Of a stretch of DNA of 64,000 nt, positions 26,786 to 63,323 are shown piece by piece. A program made the translations under genes and the position numbers. The DNA is taken from the NCBI GenBank assembly GCA_963979435.1, contig CAXBVE010000001.1, positions 65,420-129,419 on the forward strand. The letters run 5' to 3'. This DNA comes from an uncultured Candidatus Actinomarinales bacterium. Its GTDB lineage: Bacteria; Actinomycetota; Acidimicrobiia; Actinomarinales; Actinomarinaceae. The notes under the pieces were generated by a model. The model ran no database searches and was not told where the DNA came from. It was given only the letters and a program-made list of their open reading frames with translations. Positions within the stretch are counted from its first letter, which is position 1. Every line of letters starts with the position of its first letter.

Positions 26786-26867
26786 TATAAAAAGTACCCG
26801 GAGGGGGAGTCGAACCCCCACATCCGAAGATACTGGATTTTGAATCCAGCGCGTCTGCCAATTCCGC
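26786..26867 (-). tRNA. tRNA-Leu (anticodon CAA), class II long variable arm, no encoded CCA
   Basis: Cloverleaf read by hand: acceptor GCCCGGA/TCCGGGT, anticodon stem CTGGA/TCCAG with loop TTCAAAA, long variable arm, T-loop GGGGG-TTCGACT-CCCCC. It generates the spurious shadow ORF 26751..27047 (-) (MAELADALDSKS...). Confidence 0.85.
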
Positions 26868-26945
26868 CATCCGGGCTTTACTTCTATGATTATATTTCAT
26901 ATTTAATCCAAAGAGAGAAAAATAATTTAAGTTTACAATGAAAGG

Positions 26946-41842: not shown

Positions 41843-41926
41843 GCGCGGGTGGCGGAACTGGTAGACGCGCAGGATTAAGGATCCTGTGGGGTAAAACCCG
41901 TGGAGGTTCGAGTCCTCTTCCGCGCA
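41843..41926 (+). tRNA. tRNA-Leu (anticodon TAA), class II long variable arm, no encoded CCA
   Basis: Acceptor GCGCGGG/TCCGCGC, anticodon stem CAGGA/TCCTG with loop TTAAGGA, variable arm GGGGTAAAACCC, T-loop TTCGAGT. The ORF 41580..41927 (-) is its shadow. Confidence 0.85.
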
Positions 41927-41931
41927 CAAGT

Positions 41932-50909: not shown

Positions 50910-51683
50910 GTGGAAATCGATAATAGACTAGTAATAATTTCATCTGAATCAAAAAAGTACTTAAGCGTAATAACAAAAGGCAAAGAATTCATAACTAATG
51001 ATGGCAAAATAGAATTTGATAAAATAAAATCCCTTCCTACTCAAATTGAATCATCAACCGGAAAAATATTTACAATTTATGTTCCATCTTATAAAGAATT
51101 TATTCTTCTTATGAAGAGAGGGCCTCAAATAATATATCCCAAAGATGTGGGTTCAATACTCATTTCAGGGAATATAAATTCAAATAGTAAAGTTTTGGAG
51201 ATTGGTACTGGGTCTGGAGCATTAACTCTTTTTCTAGCGTCAATTTTAGGTACTAATTCCAAATTTTATTCTTTAGATATCAGTAAAAAAAATCAATATC
51301 GAGCTAAAAAGACAATATCAAGATATTTATCTAATTATTCATCTGATTTTATAAATGATATTCAATTTATTAATACAGATCTGTCTGATTTTAAAATTGA
51401 TACCGTTCCTTTTAAATTTGATACTGTTATTACAGATGTCCCAGAACCATGGATATTCTTCGAAAACAATCATATAAATAGTAATCTTTACTGGGTTTCA
51501 TATTTACCCTCAATATCTCAAGTTTCTAAGTTAGCTGACGCTTTACAAGATAATAGCTTTAAAGATATTGAGATTAAAGAGACAATAGAGAGAGAGTGGA
51601 CGATACGAGGTAATATTTCAAGGCCAAAGCATACAATGGTTGGTCATACAGGGTTTATAGTTAGTGGAAGATATATTTTATGA
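50910..51683 (+). CDS. trmI: tRNA (adenine58-N1)-methyltransferase TrmI (Gcd14 family)
   Basis: RGPQIIYPKDVGSILISGNINSNSKVLEIGTGSGALTLFLA matches the TrmI core and SAM-binding motif I. GTG start. Confidence 0.75.
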   Translation: MEIDNRLVIISSESKKYLSVITKGKEFITNDGKIEFDKIKSLPTQIESSTGKIFTIYVPSYKEFILLMKRGPQIIYPKDVGSILISGNINSNSKVLEIGTGSGALTLFLASILGTNSKFYSLDISKKNQYRAKKTISRYLSNYSSDFINDIQFINTDLSDFKIDTVPFKFDTVITDVPEPWIFFENNHINSNLYWVSYLPSISQVSKLADALQDNSFKDIEIKETIEREWTIRGNISRPKHTMVGHTGFIVSGRYIL

Positions 51684-51684
51684 T

Positions 51685-51930
51685 TTATGGTTCAATCATT
51701 ATGCATTCGCCAGGACATTCCTCTGCCGATTCAACAACTGCATCTTCTTGACCTTTAGGAACAACAGCTAGGCCTTCAGCACCACCGACATTCCCATTTT
51801 CTTCTGAAAAAACTTTATCACCCTCTTTAACATAAAAAAGGCCATCATCTAATCCGACAAATACATCTGGTGCAATCTCTTCACAAAGGCCATCACCAGT
51901 ACATAAATCTTGATCAATCCATACTTTCAT
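51685..51930 (-). CDS. fdx: Small 3Fe-4S/4Fe-4S ferredoxin (actinobacterial Fdx type)
   Basis: CTGDGLCEEIAP ... ECPGECI cysteine pattern (C-x5-C ... C-P). 81 aa. Confidence 0.7.
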   Translation of the reverse strand: MKVWIDQDLCTGDGLCEEIAPDVFVGLDDGLFYVKEGDKVFSEENGNVGGAEGLAVVPKGQEDAVVESAEECPGECIMIEP

Positions 51931-52030
51931 AAGTAGTATTTTACCTTGTTATAGATTTACACAAATCTTCGAATATAAAATTTATATCTAATATTTTGTA
52001 AGATACTTATAAAGCTAAAACTAATTATTT

Positions 52031-52864
52031 ATGAAAAATGTATTTAAAAGGTGTTTAAAGTTAATCGCTCTTTTCGATAGCTCAAACACATTCAATCTCG
52101 ATAGTAATTACATAAAAGATAATATACCCGAGTATCGTAATTTGAATGATGCAGCGTACAAAAGATCTTTTGAGAGAGATAAAGCACTCCTAAAAGAGGT
52201 CGGGTTCAATTTAGAATATGAAAATGACAAATGGAGTGTTGAAGATGGTTATAAGCTTAAAGGAACAAATATAATTTTAGACTTACAAAGTAAATCTGGA
52301 TTTGACATTGAGAGGTTTATCAACACATATTCTGTTATTAAGAAATACTTATCACCATATTTACAACTCAATAAAGATTTAAAAGTTATACCAATACTCA
52401 ATACAGCCATAAAGGAGCGGAGAAGAGTTTCATTTATTTACAATGACAAACTAAGAAAAGTATATCCTTTAGGCCTGAGGTTCCATGCTGGAATGTGGTA
52501 CCTGGGAGCAGATGATGGAAAAATTGTTAAAACATTTAAAATAAACACTATAGAAAATCTAAAAATTGGTAACAAAGAGAATCTTCACACTAAAAATATT
52601 TCAGAATTTAACTTTTCATGGGAAAACATGTCAAGTCTTATTACGGTCGAGATAATTTCAGATAACGACTTACATAGAGTGCACAGTAGGATTTTCAATT
52701 TTACTGAGGTCTCTTCGAAGGAAAATGAAGAAAATATTACCATAAAATTAAAAACGAATGATCATCATGGCTTAATCAAGTATTTACTGTTGGTTGAGCC
52801 AAAATTACTAAATATAAATAAGCAAGACAAAGAGGCACTAAAGAGAGCTATAAATGGAATTTAA
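52031..52864 (+). CDS. pafB: PafB-like HTH-WYL domain transcriptional regulator
   Basis: N-terminal HTH-like region (…YKRSFERDKALLKEVGF…) and C-terminal WYL signature GMWYLGADDGKIVKTFKI. Occupies the pafB position upstream of tatA/tatC as in Mycobacterium. Confidence 0.6.
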   Translation: MKNVFKRCLKLIALFDSSNTFNLDSNYIKDNIPEYRNLNDAAYKRSFERDKALLKEVGFNLEYENDKWSVEDGYKLKGTNIILDLQSKSGFDIERFINTYSVIKKYLSPYLQLNKDLKVIPILNTAIKERRRVSFIYNDKLRKVYPLGLRFHAGMWYLGADDGKIVKTFKINTIENLKIGNKENLHTKNISEFNFSWENMSSLITVEIISDNDLHRVHSRIFNFTEVSSKENEENITIKLKTNDHHGLIKYLLLVEPKLLNINKQDKEALKRAINGI

Positions 52865-53675
52865 AATAAACCTAGGTAATATAATTCACATTCTTTCACT
52901 TATTAAAAAAGAAAAATCATTTAACTTAGAAGACTTAGCAGAAAATGTTAATTTAAGTTCCGACAAACTGTTGTATTCATTAACAATCTTATCGGAAGTG
53001 TACTCTTCAGATGGCGACAGCTTTATAAACTTTGAAGTAAATTTGGAAAAGAATGTCATTACCTTCGAGTTCAATGAATCTCTAGCAAGTATCCCTACAA
53101 TTACTGATCTAGACTTATTTAAAATATATACAGTTCTAAATAATCCTAAGATAAATGTTGAAAAGTTATTTGATAATAAGTCAGATCTTATTTACCTATA
53201 TAACACACTAAATAATTACTTTAAATCTCACCAAAGTGCAGCAAACAGTGCCAAACTTGACTTTAATAGAGTGTTTGTATCCGATGAACTGTATATAGAG
53301 TACATTAAATTAGGGCACAATATTTCAAATATCTATAAAATTAAGCCATTATCTTTCAATATTACAAATGATGGAGATGTTCTTGAAGCGTATGATTATG
53401 AAGACGACAAAATAAAAAGTTTTTTAATAGAAAGAATTGTTAACATTCCAGAGGAAAAAAGTCTTAAAGAAAGATTTTCAAAAAATGATAATGAGATTTC
53501 AGTTACCTATCAAGACCTAGCATTAAAAAGACATCAACAGCATTTCCGTTCAGAAGAAATAGCTGTAGAGCATTTCCTAAAGAATATAGATTCACAAAAT
53601 GTTATTGCTCCAAACTCCGTTAGAGTTGAAATTGAAAAAAGAAAAAATAAATTGATTGCTGAGTTTTTATCATGA
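52854..53675 (+). CDS. pafC: PafC-like WYL-domain regulator (paralogue partner of PafB)
   Basis: Same size class and tandem arrangement with the pafB-like gene (11-nt overlap). It is followed by tatA-tatC. WYL region is divergent. Confidence 0.5.
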   Translation: MEFKINLGNIIHILSLIKKEKSFNLEDLAENVNLSSDKLLYSLTILSEVYSSDGDSFINFEVNLEKNVITFEFNESLASIPTITDLDLFKIYTVLNNPKINVEKLFDNKSDLIYLYNTLNNYFKSHQSAANSAKLDFNRVFVSDELYIEYIKLGHNISNIYKIKPLSFNITNDGDVLEAYDYEDDKIKSFLIERIVNIPEEKSLKERFSKNDNEISVTYQDLALKRHQQHFRSEEIAVEHFLKNIDSQNVIAPNSVRVEIEKRKNKLIAEFLS

Positions 53676-53851
53676 GCATTATTGAATTACTAGTTATAGT
53701 CCTAATCTCTCTTGGTATATTTGATAAAAGCAAAATTTTATATTACTTTAATAAAATCTCTAAATTCCAAAATGGGCAAAGTCGCCAAATAATTGGAGAT
53801 AATTCAATTGATGAAAATTGGATCTGGCTAGATGAAAATGAGGAGGAATAA
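53672..53851 (+). CDS. tatA: Twin-arginine translocase subunit TatA (59 aa; not in ORF track)
   Basis: Manual translation gives MSIIELLVIVLISLGIFDKSKILYYFNKISKFQNGQSRQIIGDNSIDENWIWLDENEEE. An N-terminal TM helix is followed by a hinge and amphipathic basic helix. ATGA overlap with the pafC-like stop. It ends 1 nt before the tatC ATG and supplies GAGGAGGAA as the tatC RBS. Position matches pafC-tatA-tatC in Mycobacterium. Coordinates may be off by 1. Confidence 0.55.
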   Translation: MSIIELLVIVLISLGIFDKSKILYYFNKISKFQNGQSRQIIGDNSIDENWIWLDENEEE

Positions 53852-53852
53852 T

Positions 53853-54554
53853 ATGAAAAAACCATTCATGGAGCACCTTCAAGAGTTAAATAACAGAATA
53901 TTATTTTCTTTTACTTTAGTTGCGATAGTTGCAATATTTGTATATAACCAGTACTCATTTTTTGGTGATATTTTATTAGAACCTCTCATAAATGCTGGAT
54001 ATGATGACTCTAATATATTCGCATTAACAATCTATGAAGGTTTTCAAGTAAAGCTACAGAATACTTTTTGGATATCCATAATTATTACATTTCCATTAAT
54101 ACTTTTAATATTAGGTTATTTCGTTAAACCTGCTTTAGAGATAAGAACATTAAGCTTTTCGTTATATTTTATCTTCTTTACTCTCTTATTTTATTCAGGT
54201 ATATTTTCTTCACTAAGCATTGCTCATGTCGGTATTGAGTTCCTCCTTTCATTTAATGAGAATGAAATTATTCTAAGATCTCAAAACTATTTTCAATTCA
54301 TAACGAGAATTTCTTTGTTATTTGGAGTTTCATTTCAATTACCGTTAATCATGCTTTTTCTCCTTAACAAAGGAATAATAAAGGTAAAGAGCCTAACCAA
54401 TAAACGGGCTGAAATGTTTATAGTCATTCTTATTTTTTCAGCAGTAATAACACCAACGGGAGATCCTATTTCGCTTTTTATCTTCACTCTGCCTATGTAT
54501 TTACTCATAGAAATAATGATTTTTATTCATAAAAAAAGTAATCGTGAATTTTAA
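53853..54554 (+). CDS. tatC: Twin-arginine translocase subunit TatC
   Basis: N-terminus MKKPFMEHLQELNNRILFS matches the TatC start (M..eHL.ELR.R). Six TM helices. Start moved from the track's 53832 to ATG 53853, which is preceded by GAGGAGGAA. Confidence 0.8.
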   Translation: MKKPFMEHLQELNNRILFSFTLVAIVAIFVYNQYSFFGDILLEPLINAGYDDSNIFALTIYEGFQVKLQNTFWISIIITFPLILLILGYFVKPALEIRTLSFSLYFIFFTLLFYSGIFSSLSIAHVGIEFLLSFNENEIILRSQNYFQFITRISLLFGVSFQLPLIMLFLLNKGIIKVKSLTNKRAEMFIVILIFSAVITPTGDPISLFIFTLPMYLLIEIMIFIHKKSNREF

Positions 54555-56415
54555 TTTAGATAAATTTCAGGTTGAGGCAATTGACTCTATTAATAAAGAT
54601 TTTAATGTATTAGTCGTTGCACCTACGGGATCAGGAAAAACCTATATAGCCGAAAAAGCTATTGAAAAATATACTAACCAAAACCAAAATGTAATTTATA
54701 CGACACCCATTAAAGCATTATCGAATCAAAAATATAATGATTTCACAAATTTGAACATTGATACTGGATTGCTCACAGGAGACAGGACCATCAGCCCAGA
54801 TTCAAATCTAATTGTTGCCACTACAGAAATATTAAGAAATATGATTTATTCAGATGACAAAAGATTAAAAAAAATTGGACTCATAGTCCTTGATGAAGTT
54901 CACTATCTATCTGATTCCGAGCGAGGCACAACTTGGGAAGAAATAATTATTCATGCCCCAAAAAACATTAAGTTTCTTTTTCTATCAGCCACTATTAGAA
55001 ATAAAGAAGAATTCCATAACTGGATAGTTTCATTAAGAGGAAAAACATCATTGGTGTACTCCAATATAAGGCCCGTCCCACTAGAAATATCGTTAGTTGG
55101 TTTAAACCCTCACAGTGAGCAATTAAAAATAATTAAATCTTCAAAAGATAAGCGTAATAATAAAATTTTTAAATTTGAAAAACAATATAGAAAGTACAAG
55201 AGACCTCATCTAGGCTTTCAACTTGACTACCTCGAAAGTAAAAATCTTACACCTTCAATATTTTTTTATTTTTCAAGAGATAGAGTTGAAACAAAGGCTA
55301 GACAGGCAGCGACAAATAGAAATAAAATTAAAAAAGCAAATGAGATTAAAGATGTTTTTAATGATGTTTTTAGTTCTCTAGATTCAACTCAATATGATCT
55401 CTTAAATTTGGATGAACTATTGTGGATGTGGGTAAGAGGAATCGGATATCATCATGCAGGGCTTGCACCTATTGTAAAAGAATTTATTGAATTTTTATTT
55501 CTAAATAGATATATAAAATATTTATTTGCCACAGAAACACTATCACTTGGTCTCAATCTACCTGCGAAATCTATTGTTATCGATAGACTTTACAAATACG
55601 ATGGAATAAAAACACGATTAATCAATCAATCAGAATTTCTACAATTGACTGGGAGAGCAGGAAGGAGAGGGATTGATACAAAGGGATTTGCATTTATTAA
55701 TTATGACAGAAATATTGAAAACTTTTGGTATAACAACTTGTTTACCCTCAAATCAAGTAATTTAAATTCTGCATATTCGGTCTCGTATTCTTCAATATTG
55801 AATATGTTAAGCAAATACTCACTAAAGCAAGCCATAGAACTCCTTGAAAAAAGTTTCTTTTCTTATCAAAATAACTTCAATATCAAAAAGCTTCAAAATA
55901 CATTTACATCCAAGCTCGAAGTCCTTGAGTTGTTAAATTTCAAGAATGACAATAAGAAATCCATGGTTTTAACCGAAACCTATAGGGATAATCTAATCGT
56001 CGGACTTGAATTACTAGAGAGTGATTTTGATAAAGATATGAATTTCTACTTGATGCTTGTATGCTCTGGTTTATCCACAACCAGGCATGACTTGTCCCTT
56101 AATGAGTTGTATGTGGATACATTCATTAAATTTCAAATTATGGAGGAAAAGATTAATAAGATGGAATCATTTGCAGGGGTCAAAAAAATAACTTCAATTG
56201 AAATTGGTTGGTTCAGTATTTTTAATGAATATTTGCAATCTGAAGACGTTGAATCAGTATTATCTAAATTCAATATCAGTATCGGTGATTTTATTCGTGC
56301 TGGTAAGGAAGCTTCTGAACTCTCAACTAAACTCTTTAATATATATCGTATTAAGGAATTTAAAATGATTACTGATATTTTTAATGATGAGTTAATCCAG
56401 AAATCTATGCGATGA
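54544..56415 (+). CDS. helY: DEAD/DEAH-box (Ski2-like, HelY-type) helicase, short form
   Basis: Walker A VVAPTGSGKT, DEVH box (LDEVHYL), SAT (LSAT) and motif VI QLTGRAGRRG. GTG start overlapping the tatC end. Matches the tatC-helY order of Mycobacterium. Confidence 0.75.
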   Translation: MNFNLDKFQVEAIDSINKDFNVLVVAPTGSGKTYIAEKAIEKYTNQNQNVIYTTPIKALSNQKYNDFTNLNIDTGLLTGDRTISPDSNLIVATTEILRNMIYSDDKRLKKIGLIVLDEVHYLSDSERGTTWEEIIIHAPKNIKFLFLSATIRNKEEFHNWIVSLRGKTSLVYSNIRPVPLEISLVGLNPHSEQLKIIKSSKDKRNNKIFKFEKQYRKYKRPHLGFQLDYLESKNLTPSIFFYFSRDRVETKARQAATNRNKIKKANEIKDVFNDVFSSLDSTQYDLLNLDELLWMWVRGIGYHHAGLAPIVKEFIEFLFLNRYIKYLFATETLSLGLNLPAKSIVIDRLYKYDGIKTRLINQSEFLQLTGRAGRRGIDTKGFAFINYDRNIENFWYNNLFTLKSSNLNSAYSVSYSSILNMLSKYSLKQAIELLEKSFFSYQNNFNIKKLQNTFTSKLEVLELLNFKNDNKKSMVLTETYRDNLIVGLELLESDFDKDMNFYLMLVCSGLSTTRHDLSLNELYVDTFIKFQIMEEKINKMESFAGVKKITSIEIGWFSIFNEYLQSEDVESVLSKFNISIGDFIRAGKEASELSTKLFNIYRIKEFKMITDIFNDELIQKSMR

Positions 56416-57287
56416 AAGAATATGTTGTAGTTTATAACCTAAATTCTAGAGGTAAAAAATTAACCGAAAGCTACTTGACCACACTTTTTGAAAAGCATAA
56501 TTTGAAATCCAAAATCTTTATGACTTCTGATGTTTCAGAAGTTGATCAAATAATAGAACAGCATAAGGACAGTAAAAAATATAGTTATTGTGCAATTGGG
56601 GGAGATGGCACTATTAATTCTTTGATAGATAGTCTTCTAAGAAAAGGTCTAGACCGTCCTATTGTAGGATGTCTTCCATCAGGTAGTGGTTCTGATTTTT
56701 TAAGAACTTTTGCAATCCCTCAAAATATAGAAACCGCAATAGAACACCTCAAAGGAGATTCTACCTACCTTATTGACACAGCAATTGTGTCCACTTCCGA
56801 AAAAGAAAGACATTTTGTTAATATTTTAAACTTTGGTTTTCTTGCTGATACAGTTGAAATGAGTGAAAAATTACCAAAGATTTTTAGAAGATTTAGATAC
56901 CCGATTAGCTTCTGGCTAAAGCTACTTCCTGCTAGGTCTGGAATGATGTCTATTAAAACACACAACTATGAATTTAATGCCGATGCCTTCGTTATTACTG
57001 TATGTAATGGTCAGTTTTTTGGAGGTGGCTGGAATATATCACCTAAATCCAGTCTTCAAGATGGTCTACTTAATATTCAAATTTTTAAAGTAACAAAAAA
57101 GAAAGCTATGAAATTATTTTTTCTAGCAAAGAAGGGTTTACATTTAACAGAACCAGATGTTCTTTTAAAAAGAAGTGGAGAGATACAGCTTTTATCACGT
57201 CAATCAATAGAAATTGATGGTGATTATTTCGATAAGGGACCAGCTGAGATATTTGTTAAAAAAGCTTCCATACAGCTAAAAATTTAG
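56412..57287 (+). CDS. Diacylglycerol kinase catalytic-domain lipid kinase (YegS/DagK family)
   Basis: DAGK_cat motif AIGGDGTINSL. About 290 aa. Confidence 0.6.
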   Translation: MKEYVVVYNLNSRGKKLTESYLTTLFEKHNLKSKIFMTSDVSEVDQIIEQHKDSKKYSYCAIGGDGTINSLIDSLLRKGLDRPIVGCLPSGSGSDFLRTFAIPQNIETAIEHLKGDSTYLIDTAIVSTSEKERHFVNILNFGFLADTVEMSEKLPKIFRRFRYPISFWLKLLPARSGMMSIKTHNYEFNADAFVITVCNGQFFGGGWNISPKSSLQDGLLNIQIFKVTKKKAMKLFFLAKKGLHLTEPDVLLKRSGEIQLLSRQSIEIDGDYFDKGPAEIFVKKASIQLKI

Positions 57288-57317
57288 TATGATTTTAAAA
57301 GCACTTTAAGGAGAAGC

Positions 57318-57680
57318 ATGGCAGAAAAAGAAGTAGATGAAATTAAAGAACCTAATTTAGAAGATCTTGATGAAGACGATCTAGAAGATTCAGAAACGCC
57401 TACTGATGAAGAAGAGGAAAAAGAGGAGATTGAAACCGAATCTTTAGAAGCTCGTGTTGAAAATGAAAAGAAAACAGTAGAAGAACCTGATGATGCGGAG
57501 GGCTCCTTTATGAGTGTTGACGCAGCTGAAAAAAGAAATGTTAAAAAATCTGATTTAAAGCTAGATGAAGCTGCTGCAGATAAAGAAGATGATGAGTTTA
57601 CTTGTTCTGTTTGTTTCTTAGTTCTCAAGAATACTCAACTCGCTAAGCCAAGGTCTAAAGTGTGTGCAGACTGTGCATGA
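57318..57680 (+). CDS. Acidic protein with C-terminal zinc ribbon (DUF4193-like, conserved in Actinobacteria)
   Basis: Long Glu/Asp-rich N-terminus, then TCSVCFLVLKNTQLAKPRSKVCADCA (CxxC...CxxC). The antisense ORF 57284..57628 is Ser-rich low complexity and judged spurious. Confidence 0.5.
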   Translation: MAEKEVDEIKEPNLEDLDEDDLEDSETPTDEEEEKEEIETESLEARVENEKKTVEEPDDAEGSFMSVDAAEKRNVKKSDLKLDEAAADKEDDEFTCSVCFLVLKNTQLAKPRSKVCADCA

Positions 57681-62018: not shown

Positions 62019-62886
62019 TAATTCTATTAAATACTTACTTGATGATTACCAAGATTATTTATCGTACTCAAAAGGATTATCAAAAAATTCAGTTGATGCA
62101 TATAGAACTGACCTCTTAAACTTATTCAAAGAAAACTCAGTAACAAATATTTCTAGTGATGCGCTCAACAAGTTAATAAAGCTAATTTCTACAAAAGAGT
62201 ACAGCCCCAATACGAAAAAAAGAAAAGTTTCCGTATTAAGACAATTTGTAAAATGGTACAACTTTAGGGAAAATTCGAAAACAGTTATTCTTGAAGATGT
62301 AACAATTAAATCTGGTCAAAGACTTCCTGAAACACTCTCCATTACACAAATTGAACAATTAATAAATTTTCATGACAAGGAAACCTTTATAAGTAAACGA
62401 AATAAAGCCATAATCGATTTTATGTATTCTACGGGATGTCGTGTTAGTGAATTATGTAATGTTAAAATTGCCGATATTGATTTTGATGAAGATTATATTC
62501 AGTTAACCGGAAAAGGTTCAAAACAACGAATTGTCCCAATTGGTTCCAAACTTAAAACTAATTTACTATCTTATCTCGACTTAAAGCTTATCAAGGATAT
62601 CTCAAATAATCCTTTTTTGTTTATTTCCCGTACTGACAATCCACTAGAACGCACTGCTATTTTTAGGATAATTAAATCAACAGCTCTTAAAACCTCAACG
62701 ACTCTAAATATCCACCCCCATACATTAAGGCACAGCGCTGCAACTCATATGCTTGAAGCTGGATGTGATCTTCGAACACTTCAAGAATATTTAGGACATT
62801 CATCTGTATCCACTACGCAAATCTATACTAAGTTAACAAAAGAATTTCTTAATGAAGTTTTTAACGAAAGTCACCCAAGAGCATGA
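62014..62886 (+). CDS. xerD: Tyrosine recombinase XerD (start codon unresolved; first in-frame ATG is internal at 62422)
   Basis: The C-terminal catalytic domain ([25 protein letters not shown]) is the track ORF 62422..62886. The same frame stays open upstream to the stop at 62008-62010 and encodes a conserved XerD N-terminal domain ([29 protein letters not shown] ... [19 protein letters not shown]). No ATG/GTG/TTG is in frame between 62011 and 62421. The 5' boundary given here assumes an ATT start at 62014. Confidence 0.6.
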
Positions 62887-63323
62887 ATGAAATTTATATA
62901 AAATCAAAGAGAGCTATAAGATTTCTCTTTTACAAACATCTTTCTATAAATGAACAATTGGTAATCTCAAATACGCTTAAAAATAATCAATTAATAAAAC
63001 AATACTGGTTATTAAACAAAGCTGATAGACATCACTCTATTGAGGTTATGAATAGAACCTTAAGATTCTCTGATGATTTAGAATTATTACAACTTTCCCT
63101 ACTGCATGATATTGGTAAAAATACTGGGCATTATTCTTGGTTCTTAAGAATACTTTCTGACCTAAAAATAGTATCTTCATATAAATCTAAGAAATATCTC
63201 GATCATGAATTAATAGGACTAGAAGTATTGTCTCAAATTGGGGATATAGATTCTTTAGTTGCTCAATATCAAAAAAATCTTCTTCAAAATAAGCATCAAA
63301 TACTAGATAAGACTGATTACTAA
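62883..63323 (+). CDS. HD-domain protein (small metal-dependent phosphohydrolase fold)
   Basis: H...HD pattern (DRHHSIEV ... LLHDIGK). 146 aa. Overlaps the xerD stop and the scpA start by 4 nt each. Confidence 0.4.
   Translation: MNEIYIKSKRAIRFLFYKHLSINEQLVISNTLKNNQLIKQYWLLNKADRHHSIEVMNRTLRFSDDLELLQLSLLHDIGKNTGHYSWFLRILSDLKIVSSYKSKKYLDHELIGLEVLSQIGDIDSLVAQYQKNLLQNKHQILDKTDY

Follow-up and report, generated by a model that had tools for sequence, protein, structure and literature searches.

Gene content and origin of the locus

A 64-kb stretch of contig CAXBVE010000001.1 (the window; all positions are counted from its first nucleotide) carries, between trmI and a gene for a DUF4193 protein, a small ferredoxin gene (fdx), two adjacent open reading frames (ORF1 and ORF2), a tatA-like gene, tatC, a helicase gene and the lipid kinase gene lipK (Table 1). 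In related Acidimicrobiia this neighbourhood also holds the six Pup-proteasome system (PPS) genes, namely arc, dop, pup, prcB, prcA and pafA. We report that this block is missing from the locus, and that the two genes left behind encode an orthologue of PafB and, very probably, a PafC-like partner. The gene order put forward in the initial annotation (trmI, a divergent ferredoxin, two tandem ORFs, tatA, tatC and a helicase) was recovered in full, coordinates included.

The GC content of the window is 29-35% throughout (~32%). In a scan of one genome per species, the nearest relatives of ORF1 were found in metagenome-assembled genomes (MAGs) and single-amplified genomes (SAGs) of Candidatus Actinomarina/Actinomarinales at 38-46% identity (L009-L018; L numbers denote fetched loci), followed by high-GC Acidimicrobiia MAGs and then by Nonomuraea, Streptosporangium and similar genera. 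Identical copies of ORF1 occur on many marine metagenome contigs of ~80-130 kb. Genomes of Candidatus Actinomarinales are ~1.1 Mb in size with ~32.5% GC, and the order has a high-GC sister order, UBA5794 (PMC12008989). By these affinities, the window belongs to Candidatus Actinomarina (order Actinomarinales, class Acidimicrobiia).

From ORF1 through lipK each gene overlaps or abuts the next in a gap-free six-gene run, ORF2 overlapping ORF1 by 11 nt and the TatA-like ORF by 4 nt. The overlapping stop and start codons suggest that pafB-pafC-tatA-like-tatC-helicase-lipK is probably one operon, driven from the 100-bp junction upstream of ORF1.

Table 1 Features of the locus, with positions in the window.
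Feature	Position	Strand	Remarks
TrmI/GCD14-type tRNA methyltransferase	50910-51683	+	PF08704 E 1e-16; upstream anchor of the neighbourhood
Small 4Fe-4S ferredoxin (fdx), 81 aa	51685-51930	-	Fer4_15 E 5e-15; single-cluster
fdx-pafB intergenic region, 100 bp, divergent	51931-52030		Deletion junction
ORF1, PafB orthologue, 277 aa, GMWYLGADD	52031-52864	+	PF13280 E 4e-10
ORF2, very probably PafC-like, 273 aa	52854-53675	+	No family match; position and predicted fold
TatA-like small membrane protein, 59 aa	53672-53851	+	tatA position; no Pfam match
TatC	53832-54554	+	PF00902 E 8e-39
Ski2/Hel308-type DEAD-box helicase, 623 aa, positional orthologue of HelY	54544-56415	+	DEAD E 1e-28
YegS/DAGK-family lipid kinase (lipK)	56412-57287	+	TIGR00147 E 4e-39, above cut-off
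DUF4193 protein	57318-57680	+	PF13834 E 4e-8; synteny anchor typical of Actinobacteria

Loss of the arc-to-pafA block

ORFs were called in all fetched loci and compared with the window proteins and with the PPS proteins of an Acidimicrobiia locus. These reference proteins were checked against Pfam: ARC matched AAA and Prot_ATP_ID_OB, Dop and PafA matched Pup_ligase (E 1e-168 and 4e-165), Pup matched its own family, and PrcB and PrcA matched Proteasome. Among the reference flanks, PafB matched WYL and WCX, PafC matched HTH_PafC, WYL and WCX, and HelY matched DEAD, Helicase_C and DSHCT. In high-GC Acidimicrobiia the gene order is trmI-fdx-arc-dop-pup-prcB-prcA-pafA-pafB-pafC-tatA-tatC-helY-lipK-DUF4193, as far as the contigs reach. 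Some or all of the six PPS genes lie directly upstream of pafB in L019-L031, L034, L035, L043 and L051, with all six present in 11 of these loci. The order in the 16 Actinomarina loci (window, L001-L006 and L009-L018) is identical throughout: trmI-fdx-ORF1-ORF2-tatA-like-tatC-helicase-lipK-DUF4193.

Searching the whole window by tblastn with the verified ARC, Dop, Pup, PrcB, PrcA and PafA returned nothing at E <= 1e-4, and none of the six proteins had a tblastn match in any of the 16 Actinomarina loci. Equally, no Pup_ligase (PF03136), Pup (PF05639), Proteasome (PF00227) or proteasomal-ATPase family was present in the precomputed Pfam annotation of contigs that carry the same genes and cover most of the window. 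The tblastn searches, the Pfam families and the comparison with Acidimicrobiia loci all bear out the earlier claim that the PPS set is absent between trmI and pafB. The missing segment is one contiguous arc-pafA block, ~6.3 kb long in L019, and the genes around it have kept their places. TrmI, which is 52-60% identical among other Actinomarina and ~30% in Acidimicrobiia, occupies the same position upstream of fdx/arc; lipK follows helY in Acidimicrobiia too, and DUF4193 holds the same position in L027-L029. As judged from gene order, this comparison shows that the arc-to-pafA block was lost before the sampled Actinomarina lineages diverged.

Since the window comes from metagenomic or single-cell data of an uncultured organism, the junction might be thought an artefact of assembly or binning. 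The Actinomarina loci comprise the window, six independent metagenome contigs and ten divergent species represented by MAGs or SAGs, however, and the identical junction recurs in different samples, on at least six independent contigs of 79-128 kb, as well as in the ten MAGs/SAGs of divergent species. Because so many independent sources share the junction, an assembly artefact is excluded for practical purposes.

Two further variants of the neighbourhood were seen. An ORF of ~95 aa lies between pafC and tatA in L019-L023, L026-L030, L034, L035 and L051 (e.g. L021:11977-12264); its product has CxxC...CPFC motifs, appears zinc-ribbon-like, has no Pfam match and is absent from Actinomarina. Four metagenome contigs from another low-GC actinobacterial lineage (L089, L101, L102 and L111; GC 0.36-0.38) have the order arc-dop-pup-pafA-pafB-pafC-lipK-helY, without prcB/prcA and without tatA/tatC between pafC and lipK, which is a different and partial reduction of the neighbourhood.

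ORF1 is a PafB orthologue

Several profile and residue comparisons identify ORF1 as an orthologue of PafB. It matches PF13280 with E 4.1e-10 (40 bits against a cut-off of 21.8), a WYL match was obtained for 30 of 30 orthologues, and W156, Y157 and L158 are invariant among them. Its best relatives in the PDB are M. smegmatis PafB (7p5x_AY and 9fnd_X; E 3e-6 with the single sequence, 1.6e-9 with the family profile), with the PafB half of A. aurescens PafBC (6sj9) also among the best. The hidden Markov model (HMM) search with PF13280 and the ranking of M. smegmatis PafB as best solved relative thus uphold the earlier description of ORF1 as a WYL protein carrying GMWYLGADD.

Alignment by hhalign to PPS-linked Acidimicrobiia PafB was nearly full length (probability 99.5%, E 3e-22, 261 columns) and reached ORF1 residue 264, equivalent to PafB residue 293, thereby covering the WCX region. 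The probability was 99.0% for actinomycete PafB, 98.2% for unlinked PafB-like proteins (E 4e-14) and 12.6-80% for the PafC families, the lowest value being that for PPS-linked Acidimicrobiia PafC. Residues 6-78, the winged helix-turn-helix (wHTH), align to residues 7-80 of M. smegmatis PafB and 23-63 of A. aurescens PafBC. Within this region F47-E48-R49-D50-K51, part of an F-E-R-D-K...L...G motif, is invariant in two alignments of ORF1 orthologues.

In M. smegmatis PafB, the WYL-domain arginines R181, R204, R208, R211 and R214 are needed for binding of single-stranded DNA (ssDNA) (PMC11804915). R181 corresponds to R142 of ORF1, which is invariant among orthologues and is the sole one of the five kept as arginine; R208 is replaced by K167 and R204 by G163. 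Lysine in place of a PafB arginine may substitute for it functionally. ORF1 has no pafA beside it: pafA and the other PPS genes are missing from the whole window and from all 16 Actinomarina loci, and the remaining synteny is that of the PPS locus.

ORF2 is very probably PafC-like

No significant match was found for ORF2 in Pfam (including WYL, HTH_PafC PF19187 and WCX) or NCBIfam, HTH_Mga reaching only E 0.039, and neither phmmer nor hmmsearch gave a match to PDB sequences. Alignment by hhalign to ORF1 and to three PafB and three PafC families was likewise without a significant result (probability < 4% for the PafC families). Acidimicrobiia PafC, by contrast, matches HTH_PafC, WYL and WCX. 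Homologues of ORF2 are confined to Actinomarina and are all annotated as hypothetical. Both the missing similarity to PafC, PafB, WYL, HTH_PafC and WCX and this restricted distribution would fit an unrelated gene that had replaced pafC at its position.

Such a replacement is nevertheless very unlikely, as position, faint sequence signals and predicted fold all point the other way. ORF2 has the position, orientation and length class of pafC. It lies directly downstream of pafB and upstream of tatA, as pafC does in Acidimicrobiia, has start/stop overlaps with both neighbours, and is intact in every lineage. When 97 orthologues were scanned singly, faint sub-threshold WYL matches appeared in 58 (best E 0.0039), WYL being the most frequent family. 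A colinear WYL-like pattern can be traced in ORF2 (IEYIKLG...YKIKP...DG..LEA.D....IK.F.IERI), in which L-E-A replaces W-Y-L and the arginine of 'R-I', R194, is invariant.

A first AlphaFold2 (AF2) model built from 19 sequences (pLDDT 58) left the WYL region unmodelled and was replaced by a run with 97 sequences (pLDDT 71.6). The predicted fold consists of a wHTH, a degenerate WYL-type (Sm-like) beta domain and a C-terminal alpha/beta domain. In a Foldseek search with this model, all 29 matches at E <= 1e-3 were WYL regulators, headed by M. smegmatis PafC (9fnd_Y, E 5.8e-10). Position, overlapping start and stop codons, predicted fold and the faint WYL matches together make it very probable that ORF2 is PafC-like. 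The initial annotation had predicted two tandem helix-turn-helix (HTH)-WYL proteins; this holds for ORF1, whereas ORF2 fails the HMM test for WYL, HTH_PafC and WCX and is assigned to PafC by position and predicted fold. ORF2 and its homologues, now labelled 'hypothetical protein', can be relabelled PafC-like.

In a 463-aa metagenome protein, P0138, an ORF2-like sequence (56% identity over 75% of the query) is combined with PF22617/PF08502 domains. The protein occurs on a single contig as a single member and is probably a mis-assembly or a read-through call.

The ferredoxin and the junction

The ferredoxin is 91-96% identical across Actinomarina. The same ferredoxin is encoded on the reverse strand next to arc in nine relatives (L019, L020, L022, L025, L027, L031, L061, L090 and L092, two of which are low-GC metagenome loci), lying between trmI and arc in most of them. 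We considered whether it was an insertion that replaced the PPS genes, and rejected this because it adjoins arc in relatives that still carry the PPS. By its placement, the ferredoxin gene is ancestral to the neighbourhood.

Alignment of the spacer between fdx and pafB from nine Actinomarina lineages revealed two conserved AT-rich blocks, TA(C/T)A(C/T)AAAT and TTTGTA(A/G)(A/G)AT, with one block ~25-45 nt upstream of each start codon. They are most simply read as divergent -10 elements, so that 51931-52030 presumably holds divergent promoters for fdx and the pafB operon. A scan of the junction for consensus promoters and terminators gave nothing convincing.

This region had been proposed as an autoregulatory site. 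We looked there for RecA-NDp (TGTCRGTG-N8-TAnnnT), the GC-rich mycobacterial motif, and found none in 51931-52030; the single exact half-site, TGTCGGTG, lies within the ferredoxin coding sequence. Because the conserved blocks look like -10 elements and no motif resembling RecA-NDp is present, nothing specific favours the autoregulatory proposal, which is left without support.

Is the loss genome-wide?

Metagenome contigs were scanned for RPI[IV]NTRDEPH, a motif invariant in Dop and PafA across all loci in hand. For the back-translation, degenerate third positions were restricted to A or T in order to leave out high-GC actinobacteria. The scan returned 24 loci (GC 0.33-0.58), with Tara and GOS marine assemblies among their source records, and because every one of them is a genuine PPS cluster, the scan can be taken to work. 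None of the 24 is Actinomarina-like: identity to the window is 26-33% for their TrmI and 35-39% for their helicase, compared with 52-63% among Actinomarina clades. Lineage-specific codon usage puts the probability of a match at 0.30-0.47 for any one Actinomarina dop or pafA. If nine lineages carried both genes, the chance of obtaining no match at all would be ~1e-4, assuming that the motif is kept and that the lineages are in the collection. Resting on this targeted metagenome scan rather than on a complete genome, genome-wide loss of the PPS in Actinomarina is likely.

The alternative is that the PPS genes now lie at another place in the Actinomarina genome, perhaps accompanied by a second pafBC pair. 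The window covers 64 kb of a ~1.1-Mb genome, and tandem PafB/PafC-like pairs do occur outside a PPS context in other Acidimicrobiia (L032, L033, L044, L053 and others), so that second pafBC copies are possible in the class. We nonetheless regard relocation as highly improbable. All related lineages examined have their PPS genes at precisely this place, the genomes show extreme streamlining (PMC12008989), and none of the 24 low-GC PPS clusters found was Actinomarina-like, though Actinomarina contigs are abundant in the collections searched.

The PPS-unlinked tandem pairs occur in many Acidimicrobiia MAGs (L032, L033, L044, L045, L053, L060, L062, L063, L075-L077, L079, L081, L085, L087 and L088). 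They are 35-41% identical to PPS-linked PafB and have no PPS, tat, helY, lipK or trmI gene within 10 kb. They are either a second, context-free type or the pair of lineages with a rearranged locus. Descent of the Actinomarina pair from these unlinked pairs was rejected on flank synteny and on its better profile score to PPS-linked PafB.

Reduced TatA-like protein and helicase

The tatA-tatC-helY segment had been described as retained. The three genes are in place, TatC is recognised by Pfam and the helicase keeps its core; the TatA-like protein, on the other hand, matches no TatA model and the helicase lacks a DSHCT match. The TatA-like ORF has no Pfam match, and NCBIfam TatB reaches only E 0.075. 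It is conserved in nine Actinomarina lineages, in all of which the FG hinge is changed to (I/L)-D-K. Alignment by hhalign to Acidimicrobiia TatA places the transmembrane helix in register, weakly (probability 15.6%, E 0.0017). TatC scores 108.7 bits with TIGR00945, below the cut-off of 132.7, set beside its strong PF00902 match (Table 1). Gene callers on identical contigs start it at window position 53853, giving 233 aa. Loss of a near-universal F-G hinge while TatC is kept raises the question of whether Tat export works in this lineage.

In addition to DEAD (Table 1), the helicase matches Helicase_C (E 3.5e-6) and Hel308 (E 8e-55, below cut-off), with no Pfam match to DSHCT in its 623 aa. Residues 1-478 align at 35% identity to residues 15-499 of an 851-aa Acidimicrobiia HelY that has DSHCT. 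The protein is ~230 aa shorter than HelY of relatives, and its last ~145 aa align to nothing in HelY. From these alignments, the TatA-like ORF and the helicase are reduced or degenerate forms.

Other features of the window

Housekeeping genes fill the stretch before trmI, and GNAT, HAD, rhomboid, nadK, pyrG and xerD genes lie beyond DUF4193. Elsewhere the window contains a dcw cluster with ileS, dnaE and thyX; nth, polA, rpsA, coaE and uvrBAC; and rapZ, pgk and tpi. No defence genes were found near the locus among the precomputed Pfam families of contigs carrying the same genes.

Two tRNA-Leu genes lie at 26794-26876 (- strand) and 41843-41927 (+ strand), with anticodons CAA and AAG; the former fills most of the polA upstream spacer, where little space remains for a regulated polA promoter. 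Antisense to the acidic DUF4193 gene, a serine-rich ORF of 114 aa (57284-57628, - strand) almost certainly arises as an artefact of composition, the sense strand being E/D-rich. The frame of a XerC/D-type recombinase (62020-62886, + strand) is open from 62020, directly after the pyrG stop codon, with a plausible N-terminal domain in its translation. No ATG, GTG or TTG occurs before 62422, and ORF tools and gene callers give a 154-aa fragment beginning at position 31 of the Phage_integrase profile; initiation is probably at a non-canonical codon such as ATT or ATA. The following ORF (62883-63323) encodes an HD-domain protein and is not the second half of the recombinase.

Proposed history and function

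Taken together, deletion of arc-pafA with retention of PafBC orthologues is the best overall explanation of the locus, to which we give a probability of roughly 0.7. The ancestor had the Acidimicrobiia neighbourhood trmI-fdx-arc-dop-pup-prcB-prcA-pafA-pafB-pafC-tatA-tatC-helY-lipK-DUF4193. The comparison of loci shows that a contiguous block of ~6.3 kb, arc to pafA, was deleted before the sampled Actinomarina diverged, which removed the pupylation and proteasome genes together and joined the fdx promoter region to pafB. By analogy with mycobacterial PafBC, ORF1 and ORF2 most likely form a PafBC-type heterodimer, in which the WYL domain of the PafB-like subunit would be the main sensor of ssDNA and the complex would act on RNA polymerase to activate repair genes. 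In mycobacteria, a subsequent Pup-proteasome step removes RecA and other induced proteins (PMC8223512); in Actinomarina the damage response would run without this later removal. [quoted passage not shown] The well-kept WYL domain of ORF1 and the degenerate one of ORF2 fit this functional asymmetry. Ligand binding may be altered, with the W-Y-L of PafC lost and two PafB arginines that are critical in M. smegmatis replaced.

Several observations weigh against this account. ORF1 has no match to Pfam WCX or to any HTH model in the Pfam scan; for WCX (PF25583) nothing appeared at E <= 0.1, whereas Acidimicrobiia PafB matches at 6e-19. R211 of M. smegmatis PafB corresponds to K170 of ORF1 (K, S or N among orthologues) and R214 to T173 (variable). 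Between clades, ORF1 is 38-46% and ORF2 29-41% identical, making them the fastest-evolving genes of the locus (the ferredoxin and pyrG are, for contrast, 91-96% and 81-85% identical between Actinomarina clades), which might reflect relaxed or altered function. Since the searches covered the window, related loci and metagenome contigs, Actinomarina may, with low probability, still carry a pupylation set that has moved or diverged strongly. Finally, RecA-NDp is not enriched in the 64-kb window, with 22 matches against 27.7 expected from shuffling and 44 half-sites against 42.5. Nor does it occur in the little non-coding DNA upstream of polA, a gene followed on its own strand by rpsA, coaE and uvrBAC; recA and most repair promoters lie outside the window. 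As a genome of 32% GC would be expected to have drifted from the mycobacterial motif, its absence is weak evidence.

Some of these points would also suit a pair that is no longer a DNA-damage activator, having been repurposed after loss of the PPS, for instance to control the tat-helicase-lipid-kinase operon or the divergent ferredoxin locally, or persisting under weak selection. Besides the rapid evolution of both genes and the lack of a detectable RecA-NDp motif, ORF2 has lost the WYL triplet, ORF1 has lost the arginines equivalent to R211 and R214, and the pair now heads the gap-free six-gene run. There is also a precedent for local regulation in that PafBC regulates pafA transcription in M. 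smegmatis, as reported in a reference listed in PMC6466877. Repurposing appears unlikely, if well worth keeping in mind, as neither ORF is disrupted in any lineage, deep divergence notwithstanding, and 65 columns of ORF1 and 41 of ORF2 are invariant; ORF1 keeps FERDK in its wHTH, W-Y-L, R142 (= R181) and K167 (= R208); and the missing motif counts for little at 32% GC.

We keep deletion of the PPS block with a retained PafBC pair as the best explanation; the arginine replacements and rapid divergence allow for altered ligand binding or a changed regulon, an alternative that we rate as unlikely. A more specific possibility, doubtful at present, is a minimal PafBC-type circuit for DNA damage in Actinomarina, rewired and no longer coupled to pupylation. 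The features in question would be the swapped ssDNA-contacting arginines of PafB, a WYL-less PafC that keeps R194, and transcriptional fusion to the tat, helicase and lipid-kinase genes. If true, such a circuit would be a natural experiment on which PafBC features are dispensable, and might reveal a different ligand or regulon in a highly abundant and very small free-living actinobacterium.

Comparison with known systems and significance

The Actinomarina pair resembles mycobacterial and actinobacterial PafBC (6SJ9, 7P5X and 9FND) in being a tandem pair of similar size directly upstream of tatA-tatC-helY. ORF1 shares the wHTH with FERDK, the WYL domain and a full-length PafB profile alignment; the predicted fold of ORF2 is closest to PafC; and the WYL domain of one partner is well kept while that of the other is less constrained, as in the M. 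smegmatis asymmetry (PMC11804915). It differs in having no pafA or PPS locus upstream, in the length of both proteins (30-50 aa shorter), in the lack of a Pfam HTH_PafC or WCX match, in L-E-A for W-Y-L in the PafC-like partner, in K and T at R211 and R214 of the PafB-like partner, and in that no RecA-NDp was found.

With the Acidimicrobiia PPS locus (e.g. L019-L031), the Actinomarina locus shares the flanks trmI and fdx and the series pafB-pafC-tatA-tatC-helY-lipK-DUF4193, but lacks all six PPS genes and the zinc-ribbon-like ORF. Loss of prcBA alone is known in Corynebacterium, where pupylation occurs without a proteasome. Corynebacterium and the L089, L101, L102 and L111 loci likewise have a partly reduced PPS locus with pafBC kept; they lose only prcBA and keep arc, dop, pup and pafA, whereas Actinomarina loses all six. 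DriD, CapW and BrxR, the next-best structural matches of the ORF2 model, share the architecture of wHTH, WYL and C-terminal domain. DriD controls a small SOS-independent DNA-damage regulon, and BrxR and CapW are named after the BREX and CBASS phage-defence systems. These three are single-gene homodimers, in contrast to the heterologous tandem pair of Actinomarina, which lies in a PafBC context with no defence genes nearby.

The link between pafBC and the Pup-proteasome locus is described as tight (PMC8223512), and family surveys have identified PafBC orthologues by that association (PMC6789036). We found no literature linking Actinomarina or Actinomarinales with the proteasome, pupylation, PafBC or WYL proteins. 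The Actinomarina pair adds to the PafBC family a new member that is very divergent and comes from a lineage which has probably shed the whole PPS. The locus is a real case of lineage-specific gene loss by genome streamlining, with divergent PafBC kept, and not a new kind of system; its value lies in comparative-genomic housekeeping knowledge rather than in a new mechanism. The PafB and PafC sequences, shortened and very divergent, show at which residues change is tolerated. An abundant marine lineage that has PafBC but from which every pupylation and proteasome gene has probably been excised provides comparative evidence that PafBC is useful without a pupylation reset, and that pupylation is dispensable in a free-living actinobacterium of the sunlit ocean.

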